Below, in pieces: positions 3,330 to 62,305 of a DNA stretch of 64,000 bases. The DNA is taken from the IMG/VR virus record IMGVR_UViG_3300050335_000039, positions 14,811 through 78,810 of that record; one strand, given 5' to 3'. Numbering within the stretch: position 1 is the first letter of the stretch; each line of letters starts with the position of its first letter. The notes beneath the pieces are model-generated. The model saw only the letters and a list, made by a program, of their open reading frames with translations. It did not search any database and was not told the DNA's origin. Position numbers and translations under genes: made by a program. The DNA comes from a virus (Duplodnaviria > Caudoviricetes).

Positions 3330-3669
3330 TTTTAACCTCTTCTTCTGCAACATTAAAAAGACTGTAATCATATTTCTGTAAATAATTTGTAGAGTACAAA
3401 TTACAATTATTTATTGCAGAATATAAATCCCTATTAATTACCTTAAATCCCATTGTTTTTTCATCCCATTTCTTTAAATCTTTACTCCTACCTTCACTAA
3501 TATTATATGTAACTGTCCAATAACCATCTTCAAAAACTGCCTTTATTTCTGTATTAAATGTTTTTCCAATAAAGTCATTCTTTTCAATAACTAAATTAAC
3601 GTCTTTATCTTTTTTATTTTTATTAAAAAGTTTCATATCAGACTCCTTTATATACTTGTTCTTACCCAT
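3301..3669 (-). CDS. Hypothetical protein
   Basis: 122-aa ORF in a tightly packed operon. Confidence 0.55.
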   Translation of the reverse strand: MGKNKYIKESDMKLFNKNKKDKDVNLVIEKNDFIGKTFNTEIKAVFEDGYWTVTYNISEGRSKDLKKWDEKTMGFKVINRDLYSAINNCNLYSTNYLQKYDYSLFNVAEEEVKNVSEGNENT

Positions 3670-46725: not shown

Positions 46726-47613
46726 ATGGAAAAAGCAATAGGGGTAGATGTAAGTTATTATCAGCAAATAATAGATTGGAATCAGGTAGAAGTAGATTTT
46801 GCTATAATTAGATGTTTATACGGTAACTATGAAATTGATCCAAAATTTATTGAACATTTTGACGGAGCTAACAATAAAGTTCCTGTAGTTGGTGTATATG
46901 TTTGGTGGGATGCTACATTAAATCCACAAAAACAAGCAGCAAAAACTTTAGAGATATTAGCAGATAGAAAACCTGATTTTATAGCTATAGATGCAGAACA
47001 GTGGTGGTCTGATTGGAATAAATGGAGAGAATGGAGAAGGGGCGATATTACTAGGGATGAAGTTCCTAGATTTAGTGACGGGCAGTTATCTTCCAGTTTA
47101 AAGATGCTATTTACAAAATTAGCAGAAAGCGGAATTCCAATAATAATTTATACATCCAAAGGATTTATAGATAGTTATATGCCATCTATAACTACATGGC
47201 TAAAAGACAAAATTTTATGGCTAGCCCAGTATCTTACGGTAGTACAGAAATTCGATGTAAAAAAAGCGGCAACATGGAAAGACTTTAAAACAAATGTACT
47301 TCCTCTATTAAGTGAAAATCCAGCTGTTCCTAATGGAATGGATAAAACTTATTGGCATATTTGGCAAATAACCGGAGACCATTTTACTTTACCAGGTATG
47401 TGGTCAACCGTATATAAAAATAGACTTTCTGGTACAGATGTTAATATATTCAATGGTACTCTAGACGATATGAAAAAATTATTCAAAGTAAATAATGTAA
47501 TTACTACTCCCCCAACAGAAGAAGTAAATGTAGTTACATTAGATGAGTGGGCAAAAGAAGTTGATTCTTTTTTAAGAGATAGATTAAATTATGCGGGGTC
47601 AAAGTTAAAATAA
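46726..47613 (+). CDS. GH25 muramidase endolysin
   Basis: GVDVSYYQ..IDW, AIDAE (DxE), IIYT, LWLAQY, WQ, DVNIFNG. Confidence 0.85.
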   Translation: MEKAIGVDVSYYQQIIDWNQVEVDFAIIRCLYGNYEIDPKFIEHFDGANNKVPVVGVYVWWDATLNPQKQAAKTLEILADRKPDFIAIDAEQWWSDWNKWREWRRGDITRDEVPRFSDGQLSSSLKMLFTKLAESGIPIIIYTSKGFIDSYMPSITTWLKDKILWLAQYLTVVQKFDVKKAATWKDFKTNVLPLLSENPAVPNGMDKTYWHIWQITGDHFTLPGMWSTVYKNRLSGTDVNIFNGTLDDMKKLFKVNNVITTPPTEEVNVVTLDEWAKEVDSFLRDRLNYAGSKLK

Positions 47614-47614
47614 A

Positions 47615-48223
47615 ATGTTATTAGAGTTAGTAATAGTTCTATCTATAGCAGTATTTTTATATAAACTAGTATTAAATAAAGATTTAAGTTTAATGGGTTC
47701 TATATTATTAAGAATATATTTACTAGCTATAGTTATCGGTATATTAAATGACACAATAGAATTTGGTTTATTATTAATGTTAACAGCAGACCTTATATCT
47801 AGTTTTGTCTATTTTTTTACTATAGGTTTTCGTGAAAAAACAAAACAAAGGGAGTTATTAGATGCAATTGATTCCTTAAATAGAAAGTACCATGTAATAA
47901 CAAATTCCTCTTTTATGGCAGTATATGTTTTAGATAGGAAAGGGAATTTTATCTCCGTTAATAAAAGAGCTGAAGAAATTACAGGCTACACAAAAGAAGA
48001 ATTAGAAAAAATGAAATGTTATGATATAATAGTTAAATCACAGCAAGATAAAATAAAAGATAGTATATCTTATAGAATAAAAAATGGTATAGTTGATTCC
48101 ATTACTACTGTAGTAGATTTAGTAAGGAAGGATGGTAATATAGTTACCGTTGAATGCGTAAGTGCAGTCACAAAGAACGGGCAAATAACCATAACAGGTA
48201 TAGCTAGACCATTAAAGGAGTAA
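47615..48223 (+). CDS. Membrane protein with C-terminal PAS domain
   Basis: Three TM helices then VYVLDRKGNFISVNKRAEEITGYTKEEL...RKDG. Confidence 0.8.
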   Translation: MLLELVIVLSIAVFLYKLVLNKDLSLMGSILLRIYLLAIVIGILNDTIEFGLLLMLTADLISSFVYFFTIGFREKTKQRELLDAIDSLNRKYHVITNSSFMAVYVLDRKGNFISVNKRAEEITGYTKEELEKMKCYDIIVKSQQDKIKDSISYRIKNGIVDSITTVVDLVRKDGNIVTVECVSAVTKNGQITITGIARPLKE

Positions 48224-48224
48224 T

Positions 48225-48581
48225 ATGTCTTTTAGCGAAATATTAGGTTATGCCACAGCTATAGTTACTATTATATTAACAATATTTCAATTTAGAAAAA
48301 TTAAAGGTGAGGCCAAACTATCTGAATCTAGCGCAATTGAAAGTATATCTAGAGCCGCTGAGAATTTAGTAGAACAATATAGAAAGGAATCCGATTCATT
48401 AAGATTACGCAACAAGGAGCTAGAAGAAATAGTGGAGCTACTTCAAAATAAATTAAAAGAATTGACAGAAGAAATAGAAAAATTAAAAAAAGATTCTGAA
48501 ATAAAAAGAGAAAGAATAGAAAAATTAGATAAACAAGTAAAGGAGTTAAATAACTCATTAGAGTCTTGTTTAAAAAGTTAG
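48225..48581 (+). CDS. Single-TM coiled-coil protein (holin/lysis accessory-like)
   Basis: N-terminal TM, long heptad region, in lysis cassette. Confidence 0.55.
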   Translation: MSFSEILGYATAIVTIILTIFQFRKIKGEAKLSESSAIESISRAAENLVEQYRKESDSLRLRNKELEEIVELLQNKLKELTEEIEKLKKDSEIKRERIEKLDKQVKELNNSLESCLKS

Positions 48582-48593
48582 GAGGAAAATAAA

Positions 48594-48821
48594 ATGCCTT
48601 ACGGTATTCCAAAAGATATTGGAGGAGATTCTCCAGAAAACATAGAGTGGATGGAAAATTGTGTAGAAAAAGTTGAACCAAAAATGAAGGGAAGAAAAGA
48701 CCCAAAAGGTTCAGCCATAGCTATTTGTAAAACAGCATTAATGAAATCTAAAGGAAAAAACAAAGAAGCATCTACATTAATAAATTTAGTATTCGATTTA
48801 CCATTTGACGATAAAGAATAA
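48594..48821 (+). CDS. Hypothetical protein
   Basis: 75 aa, AGGAGG SD. Confidence 0.6.
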   Translation: MPYGIPKDIGGDSPENIEWMENCVEKVEPKMKGRKDPKGSAIAICKTALMKSKGKNKEASTLINLVFDLPFDDKE

Positions 48822-48839
48822 ATACTAGTGGAGGTTAAT

Positions 48840-49332
48840 ATGTGGTGCTTAGATGATAACACAGGTTTATTAATAGATGTGTTAGATTTAGAAGAGGGAG
48901 GAGCATCAATCAGAGTTACAATTACACTAGATAGATATTATACACAAATTGGTAAAATGGCAAACACGAGTGTAATAATGTCATAATCAAAGCGTTGTAA
49001 TGTTATACTCTACTGGAGGTAAACAACTACACATTATAAGTGAAATTTCCGCAGAAGGTACTTGCTATACAGTAACAAAAGAAGGGGTAATAACGGAACA
49101 GAAATAAATATAAAATGTCTAAATAGAGAATATACATACCAAGGAGAAAGTAAAGTATATCACACAAATGAGAACAGCTTTATTACCAGGAGGTACAGGC
49201 CCTAAATCTGGCGGAGGAGTTGCTAGAGAGGGGTTAGAGTGGATTCTAAAACCAAATACGAAATATTCTCTAACAAATATAAGTGGAAACACAATAAATA
49301 TAGGAATAATAAACAGCTTTTATGAAGTATAA
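48840..49332 (+). pseudogene. Frameshifted remnant of a phage gene
   Basis: GGAGG SD plus ATG; protein-like segments in successive frames ending LLPGGTGPKSGGGVAREGLEWILKPNTKY...FYEV-stop. Confidence 0.5.
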
Positions 49333-49364
49333 AAAAGAGAGATAAAAACTCTCTCTTTTTTATT
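49331..49364 (+). terminator. Intrinsic terminator ending the late operon
   Basis: AAAAAAGAGAGA-TAAAAAC-TCTCTCTTTTTT. Confidence 0.7.
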
Positions 49365-49368
49365 TAAT

Positions 49369-49499
49369 CCGATAAGGAAACCAAAAAAAATTTTTATAGT
49401 TAAATTAGAAAATGAATAGTAAAAACTGATAGGGAAACCGAAAATTAAGTTTAGAGCCTACAAATATACCTATAGACTAGAAATACCGATAAGGAATTC
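49369..49499 (+). repeat. Three spaced copies of CYGATARGGAAWYC
   Basis: CCGATAAGGAAACC 49369, CTGATAGGGAAACC 49426, CCGATAAGGAATTC 49486, each followed by an A/T tract. Confidence 0.65.
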
Positions 49500-49565
49500 A
49501 AAATTTAATTATAGAGTCTTTAGGGTACACACCGGCGGCAAATCGGACAAAAAGGGTCAGATTTG

Positions 49566-49664
49566 TGGCAGAAAGGGGGGGGGCTGGAGCAAAAAAAAGT
49601 CGCTCCCCTCACGGGGGGCGTGGATTGAAACTGGCAGAAAGGGGGGGGGCTGGAGCAAAAAAAA
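49566..49664 (+). repeat. 33-bp exact direct repeat flanking the CRISPR repeat
   Basis: TGGCAGAAAGGGGGGGGGCTGGAGCAAAAAAAA at 49566-49598 and 49632-49664. Confidence 0.9.
49599..49631 (+). CRISPR. Solitary type I-C-like CRISPR repeat (no array, no cas genes in window)
   Basis: GTCGCTCCCCTCACGGGGGGCGTGGATTGAAAC: GTCGC start, 8-bp stem CGCTCCCC/GGGGGGCG, TGGATTGAAAC end. Confidence 0.85.
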
Positions 49665-49695
49665 AGACCCTACGCTTACAGCATGGCGTAGGGTC
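49657..49695 (-). terminator. Intrinsic terminator of the minus-strand cassette
   Basis: GACCCTACGC/GCGTAGGGTC 10-bp stem followed by T9 on the minus strand. Confidence 0.85.
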
Positions 49696-49718
49696 ATCAG
49701 TGTATCCTGGCGAGGCGG

Positions 49719-49790
49719 CTACTCCGTTGCCTTGCCAAGGACTAGCAGAACAGCAGATGCAAGCAACAGAATAATTGGTATGACGTCCAT
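49719..49790 (-). CDS. 23-aa hydrophobic peptide
   Basis: MDVIPIILLLASAVLLVLGKATE; ATG overlaps the TAA of the upstream gene. Confidence 0.5.
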   Translation of the reverse strand: MDVIPIILLLASAVLLVLGKATE

Positions 49791-50149
49791 TACTGCTCCA
49801 AAATGCCGTCAACACTGACCACAGGCGATGACTGCGGGTACTGTATCTTGTTAACGATCAAATCACAGTACTCTAGCAGTACGGGCAGAGTCATGGTGCG
49901 TAATAAAACTTGCCCGTCGTACACGTTAGCTACATAGTCAATATCCGATGCCTTGCCGTCAGACAAAAGGTCGCAGTACGTCTGTACTATCTTAAAGCTC
50001 TCCAGCACGCTCTGGCCGAATGGATTACTCTGTGTTACTGTCTGGAGCGCAGACTTAAAGTTTGCGTACTCTCCATCCAGTCTAACCTCTGATATTTTTT
50101 TATCGCTACTTACCTTCATTAGTTTTGTAGTTTTAGTTTTTTCTGACAT
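49790..50149 (-). CDS. Hypothetical protein (119 aa), atypically GC-rich codons
   Basis: ORF with GAGG SD, own promoter and terminator. Confidence 0.65.
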   Translation of the reverse strand: MSEKTKTTKLMKVSSDKKISEVRLDGEYANFKSALQTVTQSNPFGQSVLESFKIVQTYCDLLSDGKASDIDYVANVYDGQVLLRTMTLPVLLEYCDLIVNKIQYPQSSPVVSVDGILEQ

Positions 50150-50253
50150 TTTTGATCCTCTTTCTCTCATTTAAGGGATGAGTCCCGTATGGTTTTTTTT
50201 AATCTATGTGTTTCCGGTAAATAATATTTCATTTTAATTTACCTCACTTTTTT

Positions 50254-50282
50254 AAAATAGCATACTCCATTGATTTTGTCAA
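50254..50282 (-). promoter_or_regulatory. Leftward promoter flanking the repeat array
   Basis: TTGACA-17 bp-TATTTT with TG extension. Confidence 0.7.
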
Positions 50283-50331
50283 TAGTTTTTTCGTTTTAAT
50301 TTAATTTTTTTCTTTTTTTTCGGATTCCGTG

Positions 50332-51229
50332 AGCCTGGATGGATAGCCTGGATAGCCCGGATGGATAGCCTGGATAGCCTGGATGGATAGCCTGGATGGA
50401 TAGCCTGGATAGCCCGGATGGATAGCCTGGATGGATGGCCTGGATGGATAGCCTGGATAGCCCGGATGGATAGCCTGGATAGCCCGGATGGATGGCCTGG
50501 ATAGCCTGGATGGATAGCCTGGATAGCCCGGATGGATAGCCTGGATGGATAGCCTGGATGGATAGCCTGGATAGCCCGGATGGATAGCCCGGATGGATAG
50601 CCCGGATAGCCCGGATGGATAGCCTGGATGGATGGCCTGGATGGATAGCCTGGATGGATAGCCTGGATAGCCCGGATGGATAGCCTGGATGGATAGCCTG
50701 GATAGCCCGGATGGATAGCCCGGATGGATAGCCCGGATGGATAGCCTGGATAGCCTGGATGGATAGCCTGGATGGATAGCCTGGATAGCCCGGATGGATA
50801 GCCCGGATGGATAGCCTGGATAGCCCGGATGGATGGCCTGGATGGCCTGGATGGATAGCCTGGATAGCCCGGATGGATAGCCTGGATAGCCCGGATGGAT
50901 AGCCTGGATGGATAGCCTGGATAGCCCGGATGGATGGCCTGGATAGCCTGGATAGCCCGGATGGATAGCCTGGATGGATAGCCTGGATAGCCCGGATGGA
51001 TGGCCTGGATAGCCTGGATGGATAGCCTGGATAGCCCGGATGGATAGCCTGGATAGCCCGGATGGATAGCCTGGATGGATAGCCTGGATAGCCCGGATGG
51101 ATGGCCTGGATGGATAGCCTGGATAGCCCGGATGGATAGCCTGGATAGCCCGGATGGATAGCCCGGATGGATAGCCTGGATGGATAGCCTGGATAGCCTG
51201 GATGGATAGCCTGGATGGATAGCCTGGAT
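50332..51229. repeat. Irregular tandem array of about 78 RGCCYGGAT(GGAT) units
   Basis: Entire stretch parses into GGAT, AGCCT, AGCCC and GGCCT blocks; count by hand. Confidence 0.95.
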
Positions 51230-51271
51230 ATATATTAAATGAAGAAACTGTGAACATACATAGTACCATAA

Positions 51272-51300
51272 TTGACATAGGATAGACTATGTGATATACT
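51272..51300 (+). promoter_or_regulatory. Rightward promoter flanking the repeat array
   Basis: TTGACA-17 bp-TATACT with TG extension. Confidence 0.8.
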
Positions 51301-57628: not shown

Positions 57629-58492
57629 ATGTTAACATTAGGTAGTGATCCAGAAAGTTTTTTAATGGAAAAGGATGGAAGTACGCTTGTCCCGCCAATT
57701 TATTTACAAAACAATTGTGGTTTGTCGTCTATTGGTGGAACAAAAAAACATCCAATATTTTTACAAACAAAAAATGTAAATATTATCGCTGATGGGGCGG
57801 CATTTGAATTTAATCCACGTCCTTCTACAACTCCAGAAGAATTTTATTCACGTATTGGTGAAATGAAAGATGGATTAAATGAATTAGGAAATAAATTTAA
57901 TTTAATTCCAGCATTTCTACCGACCGTTAATTTCAATGTAGAAAGATTCTTTTTAAATGATAAATTAACTAAAGAAGAAAAAATGGCAGTAATTTTTGGA
58001 TGTGATCCAGATCGTCGTGCTTTTAATAGTTACTATGTATCAGAAATTTTAGATGTTTATGAACATAAATTTAGATATGGCGGGGGGCATATTCATATAT
58101 CTTATCCAGAAAAAAATGAATTAATTAAAGATGAACCTGTACCAATTGTTTTATCTTTAATGTTATATTTAGGCACATATTGTGTTATTAATTCTCCATT
58201 TTTAAAGGAAGATAGGCAAAGATGTTTTTATTATGGAATTCCTGACCGTTATCGTATTCAAAAATATTCTGATGAAATTAATGGAATTGAATTCAGACCT
58301 CCATCAAACAGCTGGATGAGTTGGAGTAAAGAAAAATTTAATGATCTATTTTTTGTGATTGAAAAGGCAATTGAATCCGTAGAAAATAAAAAAATAGGTA
58401 AATTAATTAAGAAATATGGCGACCATGCTTATAATTCTATCTCTAATTATGATGTAGAATCTTGTAAAGATATTTTAAATAATATAATTTAG
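57629..58492 (+). CDS. phiEco32-like COOH-NH2 ligase type 2
   Basis: LGSDPE.FL, DGAAFEFN, GCDPD, RYGGGHIHI, IEFRPPSN. Confidence 0.8.
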   Translation: MLTLGSDPESFLMEKDGSTLVPPIYLQNNCGLSSIGGTKKHPIFLQTKNVNIIADGAAFEFNPRPSTTPEEFYSRIGEMKDGLNELGNKFNLIPAFLPTVNFNVERFFLNDKLTKEEKMAVIFGCDPDRRAFNSYYVSEILDVYEHKFRYGGGHIHISYPEKNELIKDEPVPIVLSLMLYLGTYCVINSPFLKEDRQRCFYYGIPDRYRIQKYSDEINGIEFRPPSNSWMSWSKEKFNDLFFVIEKAIESVENKKIGKLIKKYGDHAYNSISNYDVESCKDILNNII

Positions 58493-58499
58493 AGGTAAT

Positions 58500-59582
58500 A
58501 TGAAAGAATTAATAAATACTATAGGCGTAGAATTTGAAACGGAAAATATTCTACAGTCTAGGATTAGAGACAATTCTAGACTATTTCAATTAAAAACGGA
58601 TGCATCAATAGAATCTGATGCAAATACTATTACCGGAAATAATTTAATATACAAATTAAATGGAAATACTGCTATTTTAAATTGTCTAAGAAACAATGTA
58701 GTAGTTGGTACTGAAATAGTTACTAATCCGCTAGATTCTACAGACAATTTATTTGATAAAATAAGAGAAATTTTATATATGATTTCTTTAGCGGGGGAAA
58801 CACCGTATGGCGAAAGAAGCGGTTATCACTATCACATTAATATTGGTATAAATTTGCAAATTTTAAAAAATATTATAAGACTTGGAAAACATTTAGAGGA
58901 TGTATTTTATTTAATTGGGTGCAACGGATATGAATTTAGAGGAATGAAAAATGATTTTACTTACTGTAGGCCAATAACTTATTTTGGCCCACAATGTGTT
59001 TCCGTAAAAGGCTGCTATTATAGCCAATTATATAATATAAAAGATTTATTATCGGCGGAAACTTCATATAGTTTTTGGGAAATGTACGGCCAAAATCAGA
59101 ATGGGTATTCAACTAGATACCATCCAGTAAGGTACACATGGTTAAATTTATATTCTATTTTAGCTCATTCTACACTAGAATTTAGATTATTTAATAAAAC
59201 ATTAAACCCGTATTATGTTTTAGCTGAAATAGAATTATGTAAAAAATTTGTTTCATTTGTTATTGAAACGTCTTTTAAGGATTTTAAAAATGAAGATTTA
59301 TTAAGAACAAATTCAATATTTGATTGTAGAAGTAAAGAAGATATTATTAAAACATTTATAAGATTTGCTGAAATATCTGAGTTAGATAAAGAATATGTAG
59401 AAATTCTACTTGACATAATGGAGTCTTCACCGTTACCTGTATGTGAAAATTATTATATTTTTTCTCATAAAAGAACCGATAGCTTTTGGTGCAGATCGGA
59501 TTATTATCCAAAAAAAATTCCGGTAGAATCTATAAAAGTACCAAAATATGTTGACATTCATGTATTAAGAGGTGAAAACTAA
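58500..59582 (+). CDS. Putative amidoligase
   Basis: IGVEFE, KTDASI, TEIVT, GYHYHIN, RY..LN, TLEFRLFNKT. Confidence 0.8.
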   Translation: MKELINTIGVEFETENILQSRIRDNSRLFQLKTDASIESDANTITGNNLIYKLNGNTAILNCLRNNVVVGTEIVTNPLDSTDNLFDKIREILYMISLAGETPYGERSGYHYHINIGINLQILKNIIRLGKHLEDVFYLIGCNGYEFRGMKNDFTYCRPITYFGPQCVSVKGCYYSQLYNIKDLLSAETSYSFWEMYGQNQNGYSTRYHPVRYTWLNLYSILAHSTLEFRLFNKTLNPYYVLAEIELCKKFVSFVIETSFKDFKNEDLLRTNSIFDCRSKEDIIKTFIRFAEISELDKEYVEILLDIMESSPLPVCENYYIFSHKRTDSFWCRSDYYPKKIPVESIKVPKYVDIHVLRGEN

Positions 59583-60763
59583 TGTGTGAACTAATGCTAA
59601 TAAATACAAACAATAGAAGAATAAATAAAACTATCTTGTACTTTTTATCCAAAGTAGATAGTATAAAGAATCAAGATGGATTTGGATTTTTTACGAAAAA
59701 TGGAGGAATATTCAAAACAAAACAAGCACCAAATAAAATATCAAATCTTTCAGATATAATTGATAAAAACTATTCGTCTGGAATAATTTTGGCGCATGTA
59801 AGAGCGGCAAGTGCTACAAATGGTAGTAAGATTATTTCCGATGATAAAGCACATCCATTTAGTACAAAAAAATTAATATTAGCTCATAACGGGGCTTTAA
59901 ATTTTACTGGTAATGGTGACGAATATAAAGACAGGGGACTAATAGATTCTGAAGAATTTTTATTAGAGTTAGATAAAGAGTATGATGGCAAAAATTTTCC
60001 TAGTGCTATTAATAAAACTATGGAAAGATTTAAAGGTAAATTTGCATTTTTAATCTACTCCATTCCAGAAAATAAATTCTATGTCATAAGAGGTAAAACA
60101 GCAAAACTGTATAAATCAACAATTAAAATTAATGGGGAAGTTTGTGGAATAGTAATAAATACATCTGATTCTGATTTAAATGAAGCATTAATGTACGTAA
60201 AAGATGTTATGTATATTACATCTAAAATTAATATTGAATTTTCTTCACCGGAATTTATTCCAAATGAGACAATTAATGTTTTGGAAGGATTTAATATTGT
60301 CGAAGTAGCAAAAATAAAAGAAGATGAACCTGTAAGCACGTATAATTATTTTCTATATAACGATTATCCATGCTCAAAAAGTTATGGATATATTAATAAT
60401 AATACTAGTACAAATAAAAAAGATGTAAGAGTTAATAGATTTACAGAATTATTGTATAGTTTTATACTTGTATCGGCATCAGATTTTACAGATGCTGATA
60501 TGGTATGTAAATGTATTACAGGTAAATACCTACTGGATTTAAATTCAAAAGATATTTTGCTATCTCATATAAATACGGCTAATAAATTAATTAATCTAGC
60601 AAAGGGAAATGCTAAACTAGTTAGATCATGGAAAACTATATGTTCTTTTAGTAAAACACCATACACTGACTATAAAATACAATTTCCTTATGTGCTAGAA
60701 AAACCAGATAAAATTTATAGTATTGCAGAAAAACTTATGCCAAGCCAAAATAAGGAAAAATAA
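59582..60763 (+). CDS. Class II (Ntn) glutamine amidotransferase, copy 2, with C-terminal extension
   Basis: Met-Cys start, NQDGFG, LAHVRAAS, HPF, HNG, DSE. Confidence 0.85.
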   Translation: MCELMLINTNNRRINKTILYFLSKVDSIKNQDGFGFFTKNGGIFKTKQAPNKISNLSDIIDKNYSSGIILAHVRAASATNGSKIISDDKAHPFSTKKLILAHNGALNFTGNGDEYKDRGLIDSEEFLLELDKEYDGKNFPSAINKTMERFKGKFAFLIYSIPENKFYVIRGKTAKLYKSTIKINGEVCGIVINTSDSDLNEALMYVKDVMYITSKINIEFSSPEFIPNETINVLEGFNIVEVAKIKEDEPVSTYNYFLYNDYPCSKSYGYINNNTSTNKKDVRVNRFTELLYSFILVSASDFTDADMVCKCITGKYLLDLNSKDILLSHINTANKLINLAKGNAKLVRSWKTICSFSKTPYTDYKIQFPYVLEKPDKIYSIAEKLMPSQNKEK

Positions 60764-60764
60764 A

Positions 60765-61508
60765 ATGTATATACTCACAAATAAATATTCGTTTCCTTCG
60801 GCTAGAATTCTAGCTGAATATTTAAGTAATAAAACAAAAACCAAAATAAAACTAACATCTAATCCAGAAAAAATTAATAATGATTTTTTTATCAGATATG
60901 GTAATTCTTTTAATTTGGATTCAAATAATGATCTTGGACTAAACAATAAAAGTTTTATCAAACTTGTTAGCAATAAACTAAATTTTTCAAAATTGTTAAT
61001 AGAAAATGATATTCTAACGCCTCATTTTGTAGGTAGTGAAGAAAAACCATTATTATTTCCTGTATTAATTAGAAAAACGCTAACATCTAGCGGAGGAAGA
61101 GGAATTGTTTTATGTAGAAACGAAGATGAATTTAATATTAACTGGAAAGACGGGTACTATTGGACTCCATTTTTTAATACATCTTGGGAAGGTAGAGCGC
61201 ACGTATTAAATGGAGAAATTATAAAATTATTTATAAAAGTATTTAATGGAGAAACTGAGGATGAATTCCCAATTAGAAATTTACATAATGGCTACCATTT
61301 TTCATTAAGAAATACTGAAGGTAAATTTTCTAAACTTAAAGATATAGTACATAGATTAAATGATTTAATAAATGGGGAATATTACGCTCTCGATGTTGGA
61401 TTTAGTGAGGGATTTTATATTATTTTTGAGGCCAATTCTGCTCCAGGATTAAATTATAATACAGCAAATCTATATGCTGATTATATCAGTAAAAGATTAA
61501 ATTTATAG
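60765..61508 (+). CDS. ATP-grasp ligase (RimK/phiEco32-like)
   Basis: IRYG, NKL, GGRGI, EGRAHV, YALDV, FEANSAPG. Confidence 0.8.
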   Translation: MYILTNKYSFPSARILAEYLSNKTKTKIKLTSNPEKINNDFFIRYGNSFNLDSNNDLGLNNKSFIKLVSNKLNFSKLLIENDILTPHFVGSEEKPLLFPVLIRKTLTSSGGRGIVLCRNEDEFNINWKDGYYWTPFFNTSWEGRAHVLNGEIIKLFIKVFNGETEDEFPIRNLHNGYHFSLRNTEGKFSKLKDIVHRLNDLINGEYYALDVGFSEGFYIIFEANSAPGLNYNTANLYADYISKRLNL

Positions 61509-61516
61509 GTATATAT

Positions 61517-62305
61517 ATGTTTGTCGGACAAACAAAAATAATGGAGGAATTAAATATTATATATAATAGAATGAAAGGTGGTGATGATTTTAATATATTA
61601 TTTAGGGCCCCATCTGGATATGGAAAAACTGATTTGGGATTAAGAATTATTGCAGGATTTCCTAATGAATATTTATATTATATACCAGATGATGCTGGAA
61701 AAATAAATTTGGTTCTATCATATAGAATACATTTTATAGATGAGGTGCATACACTAAAACAACCTGAATTATTATACCCTCACATGGATTCAAAATTATT
61801 TACTTTTTTATTGGCAAGTAATGAATCTGGTGAATTAAAAGAACCTTTAGTAAATAGGTGTATTCAGTTCATCTTTGAAGAATACACGAAAGAGGAATTA
61901 TCTCTATATGTAAATAATATTTTTAATAATTTTGGTATAAAATTATCTAGTAAACAAATAGAAATAATAACAGAAAATGGAATAGGAAATCCTAGAATTA
62001 TAAAACAAATATGTCAAAGATTGATTAATATTTTTAGGATATACGGTATTCCAAAAGATGAGAATGAATTAGTAAATTATATTATAAATATTTTAAGGAT
62101 AGATAATGGATTAACAGAATACCATATTAGGTATCTAAACTATTTAAAGGAAGTTAAAAGAAGTTCTTTAGTAAATATATCTAATTGTACGCATATAGAT
62201 AAAGCAACTATTGTAAGAGATATTGAACCCGTATTATTATATAAAAAATTAATTAAAATAACCCCAAAAGGAAGGGAGATAGGTGATGCAGACTTATTAC
62301 ACTAA
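61517..62305 (+). CDS. ruvB: RuvB-like Holliday junction branch-migration ATPase
   Basis: FVGQ, APSGYGKT, FIDEVH, GNPRI, IEP.L...LI..TPKGR winged-helix tail. Confidence 0.8.
   Translation: MFVGQTKIMEELNIIYNRMKGGDDFNILFRAPSGYGKTDLGLRIIAGFPNEYLYYIPDDAGKINLVLSYRIHFIDEVHTLKQPELLYPHMDSKLFTFLLASNESGELKEPLVNRCIQFIFEEYTKEELSLYVNNIFNNFGIKLSSKQIEIITENGIGNPRIIKQICQRLINIFRIYGIPKDENELVNYIINILRIDNGLTEYHIRYLNYLKEVKRSSLVNISNCTHIDKATIVRDIEPVLLYKKLIKITPKGREIGDADLLH

Follow-up and report, generated by a model that had tools for sequence, protein, structure and literature searches.

In a phage genome, one solitary CRISPR repeat of type I-C lies exactly between two identical copies of a 33-bp sequence: on the best reading of this arrangement, a 66-bp insertion consisting of one I-C repeat-plus-spacer unit was joined into the phage at the matching protospacer. 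The phage is represented by an IMG/VR virus record of 78,810 bp from an anaerobic-digester metagenome, and the window – the whole stretch of DNA that was analysed – comprises the right 64 kb of that record (~28% GC). Throughout, P denotes the duplicated 33-mer, R the 33-nt CRISPR repeat, and X and Y the phage flanks, the locus having the form X-P-R-P-Y. We put at about one half the probability that P-R-P is a scar from the joining of a PAM-flanked protospacer with its own spacer-repeat unit, an event that would have left the phage with a unit resembling those of Racrs and crlRNAs.

Solitary repeats in phages, and recombination between spacers and protospacers, are of known kinds. The solitary repeats of phages are known as decoys (Racrs) and as regulators (crlRNAs); to our knowledge, their origin in phages is not known. 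A phrase search of the literature for a natural unit of spacer-repeat-spacer form came back empty, and neither the footprint (PAM, protospacer, repeat, protospacer) nor its recurrence appears to have been described. A repeat placed exactly between two copies of a phage sequence that is PAM-flanked and of spacer length can be read as a fossil of acquisition, pointing to a spacer-repeat unit that was joined with its own target. If the process is general, then anti-CRISPR RNAs would derive their raw material from CRISPR targeting itself, the host's memory of the phage would be wiped at each event, and the signature – TTN, duplication, repeat, duplication – would let past phage-host encounters be read with nothing but phage genomes. 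Existing I-C model systems would allow a direct test of the idea.

Organization of the P-R-P locus

On the plus strand the locus reads TTG (49563-49565), P (49566-49598), R (49599-49631), P again (49632-49664), a single A, and a 10-bp GC-rich hairpin. The 33 nt of P are protospacer-like (55% GC, with runs of nine G and eight A) and are the same in both copies. TTG abuts the 5' side of copy 1, which is the PAM position, and is one base off TTC, the PAM of type I-C systems (10.1101/2022.06.15.496202, PMC8406640); copy 2 is preceded by AAC, the end of R. The sequence-only reading had described an exact 33-bp direct repeat abutting both ends of R, preceded by these two triplets: inspection of the sequence and shuffling bear this out, coordinates included. 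Exact copies number two for P and one for R, whether the 64-kb window or the whole 78.8-kb record is considered; in the record there is no second copy of R when up to three mismatches are allowed, and no other full or seed match of P. A match arose in 0 of 100 dinucleotide shuffles: the exactness of P-R-P is not due to chance. No degenerate second repeat is present within 120 bp on either side of R, where local alignments of R and of its reverse complement are no better than those of shuffles. Camara-Wilpert et al. treat a repeat as solitary when a further copy, whole or partial, is missing from the ~100 bp around it, and R is a solitary repeat unit (SRU) in this sense. A phage mini-array (repeat-spacer-repeat) was considered and rejected, since it needs at least two repeats and the 78.8-kb record has only one. 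Rfam models matched a single tRNA in the window and nothing else.

R is a genuine type I-C CRISPR repeat. It has the form of such repeats (32-33 nt, a GTCGC start, a GC stem-loop and an end in GTGGATTGAAAC/T, giving an 11-nt 5' handle by sequence and fold); its stem has 7 bp and its loop 4 nt, and it ends in ATTGAAAC. It had been argued that a lack of this repeat family in cellular arrays would weaken the idea of capture; such arrays exist. R is identical at 33 of 33 positions to the repeats of arrays in three Chloroflexota MAGs of 54-61% GC – a Caldilineaceae MAG (58 copies), a Litorilinea MAG and an Anaerolineales MAG – and exact R also forms arrays in 53 metagenome stretches. In stretch L004 the R array follows Cas8c/Csd1, Cas7/Csd2 and Cas1c (all above NCBIfam cut-offs), plus Cas4 and Cas2; because R has the same sense as these cas genes, crRNA sense in the window corresponds to the plus strand.

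In length and GC content P is like the spacers of such arrays. Among 1523 spacers in R arrays the modal length is 34 nt (518 spacers), with 394 of 33 nt and 326 of 35 nt, so that the length of P is a common one; its GC content (55%) is close to the mean of R-array spacers (54.6%). Adjacent identical spacers, in the conformation R-S-R-S-R, occur 11 times in R arrays (in L123, L142, L145, L147, L149 and L172), and repeat-spacer units have thus been duplicated in those hosts.

Upstream of the locus, on the plus strand, are a tail gene, genes for a GH25 endolysin and a PAS membrane protein, and a holin-like gene; an intrinsic terminator (49336-49363, plus strand) closes this late/lysis transcription unit, and RNA running through R would therefore need a promoter of its own. 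Three AT-rich repeats of ~58 bp (49369-49545, plus strand; core CYGATARGGAAWYC), unique to this spot, stand directly upstream of P-R-P and could be iterons, operator repeats or promoter repeats. The switch from AT-rich to GC-rich DNA falls inside the third of these units. From 49520 to 51280 the GC content is 50-60%, and this GC-rich island holds P-R-P, a minus-strand cassette with an ORF of 126 aa, an AT-rich gap and a 900-bp array.

The orphan 126-aa ORF (49790-50170 on the minus strand in the ORF list) probably starts at its second ATG, behind the ribosome-binding site AAAGAGGA, and has a strong sigma-70-like promoter at 50254-50282 on the same strand (TTGACA, 17 nt, TG-TATTTT; 10 of 12 matches, with an extended -10). 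Folding of both strands shows that the hairpin beside P-R-P (49666-49695; 10-bp GC-rich stem, GACCCTACGC / GCGTAGGGTC) is followed on the minus strand by T9 and is the intrinsic terminator of this ORF, with the A-run of P copy 2 plus A49665 serving as its U-tract. With its own promoter and terminator, and with GC above that of the phage, the ORF resembles a moron cassette. It has no Pfam, PHROG or homologue match, an Atlas search gave nothing usable, and its AF2 model is poor (pLDDT 41). Two further features emerge from the predicted folds: on the plus strand the same hairpin occupies the place of a 3' handle hairpin after R and P copy 2, and a second terminator-like hairpin appears on the minus strand, where the reverse complement of R runs into the T8 of P copy 1.

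Read support for the repeat and both flanking copies

If P-R-P were created by an assembler, then the junctions between P and R should be confined to rare molecules. The one sequencing run that holds the phage, and may be its source (run X1), was inspected as a Logan re-assembly at k=31. In this assembly the left arm (63.7 kb, depth 132) stops 30 nt into P, and the right flank (723 bp, GC-richer) has a depth of 310, a 2.3-fold difference between flanks that is possibly GC bias. P alone forms a 33-nt contig of depth 363, and a 93-nt contig of depth 170 spans P-R-P without branching through R. The depth of P is about twice that of P-R-P, as expected for a single R between two copies of P, at a word length that cannot reveal an admixture of single-P genomes. 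Nearly all paths into and out of R lead via P. A host-type fragment (R-spacer-R) is present at a depth of only 3.7: against 170 for P-R-P this indicates that the P-R and R-P junctions belong to abundant molecules, with the caveats that Logan's averaging of shared words is not transparent and that the array fragment and the P-R-P contig have R words in common. A second assembly agrees: positions 74270-77883 of the JGI contig Ga0531114_000529 (77,883 bp) are identical to 46790-50403 of the window, P-R-P included.

These data bear on the possibility that the phage has a single P and that the assembler looped through the collapsed repeat of a host array carrying spacer P, as the sequence-only reading had entertained. 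Several circumstances lend it some credit: all evidence comes from metagenome data, with both full-length cases found on metagenome contigs; R arrays are present in the same digester runs (two further runs, X2 and X3, have R arrays and lack the phage); P and R are about as long as the smallest assembly words; and the duplications are either perfect or absent, with nothing between. The depths (170 as opposed to 3.7), the unbranched path through R and the twofold depth of P nevertheless speak against a loop, as do the exact agreement over P-R-P of two contigs of unequal length, the failure to find a contig with spacer P inside an array, and the fact that the second full-length case (L040, below) lies in an IS copy that is a unique decayed pseudogene. 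An artefact of this kind is very unlikely, and the looping proposal is largely refuted by the depths and the second contig.

Two observations concern the population and the form of the genome. The depths of 132, 170 and 310 across 48900-50280 may reflect GC or homopolymer bias, or a population that is mixed for the 66-bp unit. Contig Ga0531114_000529 begins 12,670 bp before the start of the record and ends inside the tandem array, and the right arm of the record past that array measures ~12,770 bp; from these offsets the two may be circular permutations of one genome of ~78.8 kb.

Duplications flanking other solitary I-C repeats

A survey was made of 120 solitary, non-terminal repeats, drawn from IMG/VR stretches with I-C-type repeats and from metagenome stretches with R, in which the bases abutting both ends of the repeat were compared for identity. 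Exact duplications abut both ends in six of these 120 repeats in mobile-element contigs: their lengths are 34 bp (L040), 33 bp (the window), 15 bp (L024), 9 bp (L081) and 7 bp (L114 and L066). Control sites (55,800 random positions of 32 bp within these loci) had duplications of 7-16 bp at a frequency of 0.165%, which corresponds to 0.2 expected per 120. A search for further repeats between identical sequences of 30-37 bp, which had been proposed as a check on the capture of a spacer unit, thus yielded one additional case, the 34-bp duplication of L040.

The triplet preceding the left copy is TTN in all six cases (TTC, TTG, TTT, TTT, TTT and TTC), canonical TTC being present in two. Upstream of solitary repeats the background frequency is 9.2% for TTN and 2.1% for TTC, and among control duplications TTN was present at 11 of 186; at the mirror position, after the right copy, TTN was seen in one of the six, by eye, on the printed flanks. 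With TTN on the PAM side in every case, the duplicated segment behaves as a PAM-proximal I-C protospacer in the orientation that is right for the repeat. Among the shorter cases, L024 (IMGVR_UViG_3300036951_000305) has a solitary I-C repeat at ~3630-3661 on the minus strand, with the 15-mer AATATTGAACCTTTA on both sides and TTT before it.

The second full-length case, L040 (IMGVR_UViG_3300032053_000217), has the order TTC, a 34-nt segment (P'), a 32-nt repeat, one G, and P' again. The insertion lies inside an IS3-family transposase gene, which it frameshifts; in such a place a regulatory design is implausible and a scar is natural. Independent of the window and situated in a decayed transposase gene, L040 argues for P-R-P being a scar. 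The orfB of this element (L040:8250-9500) carries three lesions: the 67-bp insertion of repeat plus spacer, a TAG in place of a Trp of the family, and a further frameshift. The IS3 element is a GC-rich segment within a low-GC viral contig. An empty-site copy of it was not found in IMG/VR, and plasmids hold only distant IS3 relatives.

The lengths of the duplications, and the triplets beside them, also bear on a different mechanism: off-target integration by Cas1-Cas2(-Cas4), in which a 33-bp fragment of repeat sequence would be inserted at cuts staggered by 33 bp, with gap filling then duplicating the target. This would be the inverse of 'neo-CRISPR' formation, which Nivala et al. in 2018 reportedly attributed to non-canonical integration by Cas1-Cas2 and in which the duplicated part is said to be a pseudo-repeat and the insert a foreign spacer. 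The two have in common an insert the size of a CRISPR unit, an exact duplication of similar size and a position outside an array; they differ in what was inserted, which here is the repeat, and in the PAM-like flank of the duplicated part. At the P-R-P locus the insert and the duplication both measure 33 bp, the length of the repeat that sets the integrase ruler, as such a mechanism would predict. It would, however, require a prespacer cut exactly at both borders of the repeat, and the related cases (duplications of 34, 15, 9 and 7 bp around 32-nt repeats) show no ruler of repeat length: L040 has a duplication of 34 bp and a repeat of 32 bp, and the others have duplications of 7-15 bp. The TTN flank moreover marks the duplicated part as a protospacer and not as a pseudo-repeat. 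We regard off-target integration as quite unlikely.

Taken at their broadest, the six cases might reflect a general process, linked to targeting by I-C systems, that writes a repeat into the invader at a targeted, PAM-proximal protospacer, with TTN in front and duplications of 7-34 bp on both sides. On this view the phage genome, instead of the array, would at times receive intermediates of interference or adaptation, and the spacer would be deleted from the host; the solitary repeats seeded in this way would come to act as anti-CRISPR RNAs or as regulators resembling crRNAs. We offer this as a tentative proposal and incline to doubt it.

Origin, host and possible function of the P-R-P unit

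If P-R-P is a recombination scar, then two crossovers suffice to produce it. A circular phage genome would first recombine with an array through the 33 bp shared by spacer and protospacer, giving L-R-[P-Y...X-P]-R-next spacer; excision between the two flanking repeats, instead of between the two copies of P, would then release X-P-R-P-Y and leave an array minus that spacer. The same product would arise from a double crossover with an array holding the spacer twice. In a Cas-dependent variant, Cas1-Cas2 would link a 3' end within the PAM-attached protospacer to the repeat at its 5' end, much as it does with the end of a prespacer, and the other side would be resolved by homology through the spacer, a course that would cover the shorter duplications too. 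The phage would in each case acquire a solitary repeat equal to those of the array, followed by a guide of spacer length and a hairpin – the layout of Racrs and crlRNAs. We infer the recombination route, as we infer the host and any RNA function. Copy 1 being preceded by TTG and not by TTC, the phage would escape self-targeting, and this change of one base may be what lets P-R-P persist.

The sequence-only reading had already proposed that a repeat and spacer were joined to the matching protospacer, by way of a circle excised from a host array. The outcome that it described is the one that fits best, being favoured by the length of P, by the TTC of L040 and by the TTN found in six of six cases; its route fares less well. 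A free circle of 66 bp is physically implausible, and integration of the whole genome via P followed by excision via the repeats is accordingly the simpler course. An array with spacer P, which either course presupposes, was not encountered: as a spacer, P is absent from the three MAGs, from the JGI metagenome contigs and from the 945 unique spacers of R arrays, none of which it resembles. Related phages lacking the 66 bp, which might have shown the site before insertion, likewise did not appear among phages (megablast of 5 kb), in IMG/VR (no match to exact P or exact R) or among JGI metagenome contigs (no match to the core of P); the 126-aa ORF, the endolysin and a 199-aa ORF, used as queries, retrieved no related viral loci. 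The scar reading thus has against it the missing spacer-P array and empty-site relative, the TTG where TTC is expected, and the difference in GC content between phage and R-carrying genomes; plain homologous recombination, in addition, does not account for duplications of 7-15 bp or for the extra G in L040.

Recombination between spacer and protospacer promotes the transduction of CRISPR loci (10.1101/2020.10.09.333658, on Varble et al. 2019 and Watson et al. 2018). In those systems, as in the proposed route, an identity of 30-35 bp joins phage and array; the outcome given for them there is CRISPR-locus transduction, in contrast to the one proposed here, in which the phage keeps one repeat and a second protospacer. 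Phage PhiAP1.1, which integrates into type II-A repeats, provides a precedent for the second step: its aberrant excision through a "wrong" repeat leaves arrays with spacer-repeat units taken along (10.1101/2020.10.09.333658). That process is driven by an integrase and attP and gives repeat-spacer-repeat, whereas the present locus is spacer-repeat-spacer and no integrase was found. These differences bear on whether R might itself be an attachment site, through which the phage integrates into host CRISPR repeats as PhiAP1.1 does, with P-R-P resulting from aberrant excision. A position just past the lysis cassette is typical for attP, and PhiAP1.1 both uses repeat identity as attP and takes spacer-repeat units along (10.1101/2020.10.09.333658). 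Yet the 78.8-kb record, estimated to be 87% complete, encodes no tyrosine or serine integrase (no match to PF00589 or PF00239, with positive controls working), and excision in the manner of PhiAP1.1 yields repeat-spacer-repeat. We consider it highly improbable that R is an attachment site.

The recombination reading implies that phage and array met in one cell. All named carriers of R are Chloroflexota of 54-61% GC, compared with 28% for the phage. R (up to two mismatches) is present in three of 401 Chloroflexota genomes; among these 401, TerL of the phage finds no close relative and one weak match, and isolated phages offer no more than remote relatives of TerL and the endolysin. Protospacers in the phage were found neither for the 58+ MAG spacers nor for the 945 unique metagenome spacers, the best match (15 nt, in the tandem array) being at the level of chance. 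Spacers of at most 30% GC make up about 1% of those in R arrays, so that a few very AT-rich ones are present. DNA of the GC-rich island is absent from the three R-carrying genomes, and P has one match in them, with two mismatches, which equals the control level. Chloroflexota are monoderm, and the GH25 endolysin and a sortase-like gene are compatible with a host of that kind. Given the GC gap, the scarcity of AT-rich spacers and the lack of close TerL relatives in Chloroflexota, an encounter of this phage with a Chloroflexota-type R host is unproven.

A further explanation treats P-R-P as a selected RNA gene. R, P copy 2 and the hairpin would be transcribed and cut by Cas5c to a crRNA-like RNA (11-nt handle, 33-nt guide), which would load the host's I-C Cascade, either as a decoy or as a self-regulator acting on P copy 1; the duplication would be kept because it is the target. 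There are precedents: RacrIC1 demonstrates inhibition of I-C systems by solitary I-C repeats of prophages (Camara-Wilpert et al. 2023, PMC10651486), and I-C SRUs give crlRNAs of 49-50 nt with an 11-nt handle that bind targets flanked by TTC or TTA (10.1101/2024.12.27.630466). With RacrIC1 the locus shares a single I-C repeat with hairpin and handle intact, in a phage, outside an array and beside a small orphan gene; it differs in its exact 33-bp duplications at both ends, in having no recognised plus-strand promoter, and in that its repeat matches Chloroflexota arrays and its phage is very AT-rich. With I-C SRU crlRNAs (10.1101/2024.12.27.630466) and viral crlRNAs (10.1101/2024.10.29.618823) it shares a repeat, a spacer-like part and a 3' hairpin; their targets are promoters, matched over ~16 nt beside TTC or TTA, whereas the only target here is the adjacent identical 33-mer beside TTG.

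The layout of the locus (R, 33 nt, 10-bp hairpin), the PAM-like TTN with upstream seed identity at six solitary repeats and the adjoining moron-like orphan gene are all in keeping with such an RNA. Against it, a scan between the upstream terminator (49336-49363) and R returned no sigma-70-like promoter on the plus strand, for a consensus that may not be that of the host. Known regulators match over ~16 nt, and a match of 33/33 would be self-destructive with a working PAM; the left copy always abuts R exactly, for which the RNA has no functional need; L040 lies within a dead transposase gene; and a search for further targets of P gave none in the phage and, in the three R genomes, nothing above chance. 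An RNA function of R, the 33 nt and the hairpin is possible by analogy with these systems; that selection for such an RNA accounts for the arrangement is, in our estimation, unlikely.

Among isolated phages, R-like repeats are confined to two fragmentary faecal records. Exact R stands alone in a mobile-element-like contig of 46% GC (L122:628-700, JACKQG010027348.1), upstream of a frame that we take, on our own reading, to be primase-like. The bases right after R in this contig, AAGACCCTAC, recur right after P copy 2 in the window (9-10 bases shared), and CCGATAAGG is found upstream in both; the remaining sequence is not alignable, and the shared bases may be due to chance. In a contig of 29% GC (L173, RCND010080564.1) exact R falls within the last 40 bases, with the contig ending 6 bases after it. 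This contig has no similarity to the phage; from its GC content it is a second very AT-rich element with this Chloroflexota-type repeat.

Elsewhere in the window, the 900-bp array of the GC-rich island (50332-51230, 58% GC) consists of units of 9 and 13 nt (GGATAGCCY and GGATGGATAGCCY) repeated in tandem without a fixed period; it is placed between the promoter of the moron-like cassette and that of the 199-aa ORF, and an ORF of 325 aa that runs across it is probably not a gene. The right arm (57629-62305) carries an unusual set of early genes, encoding two class-II glutamine amidotransferase-like proteins, an amidoligase-like protein and a RuvB-like protein.
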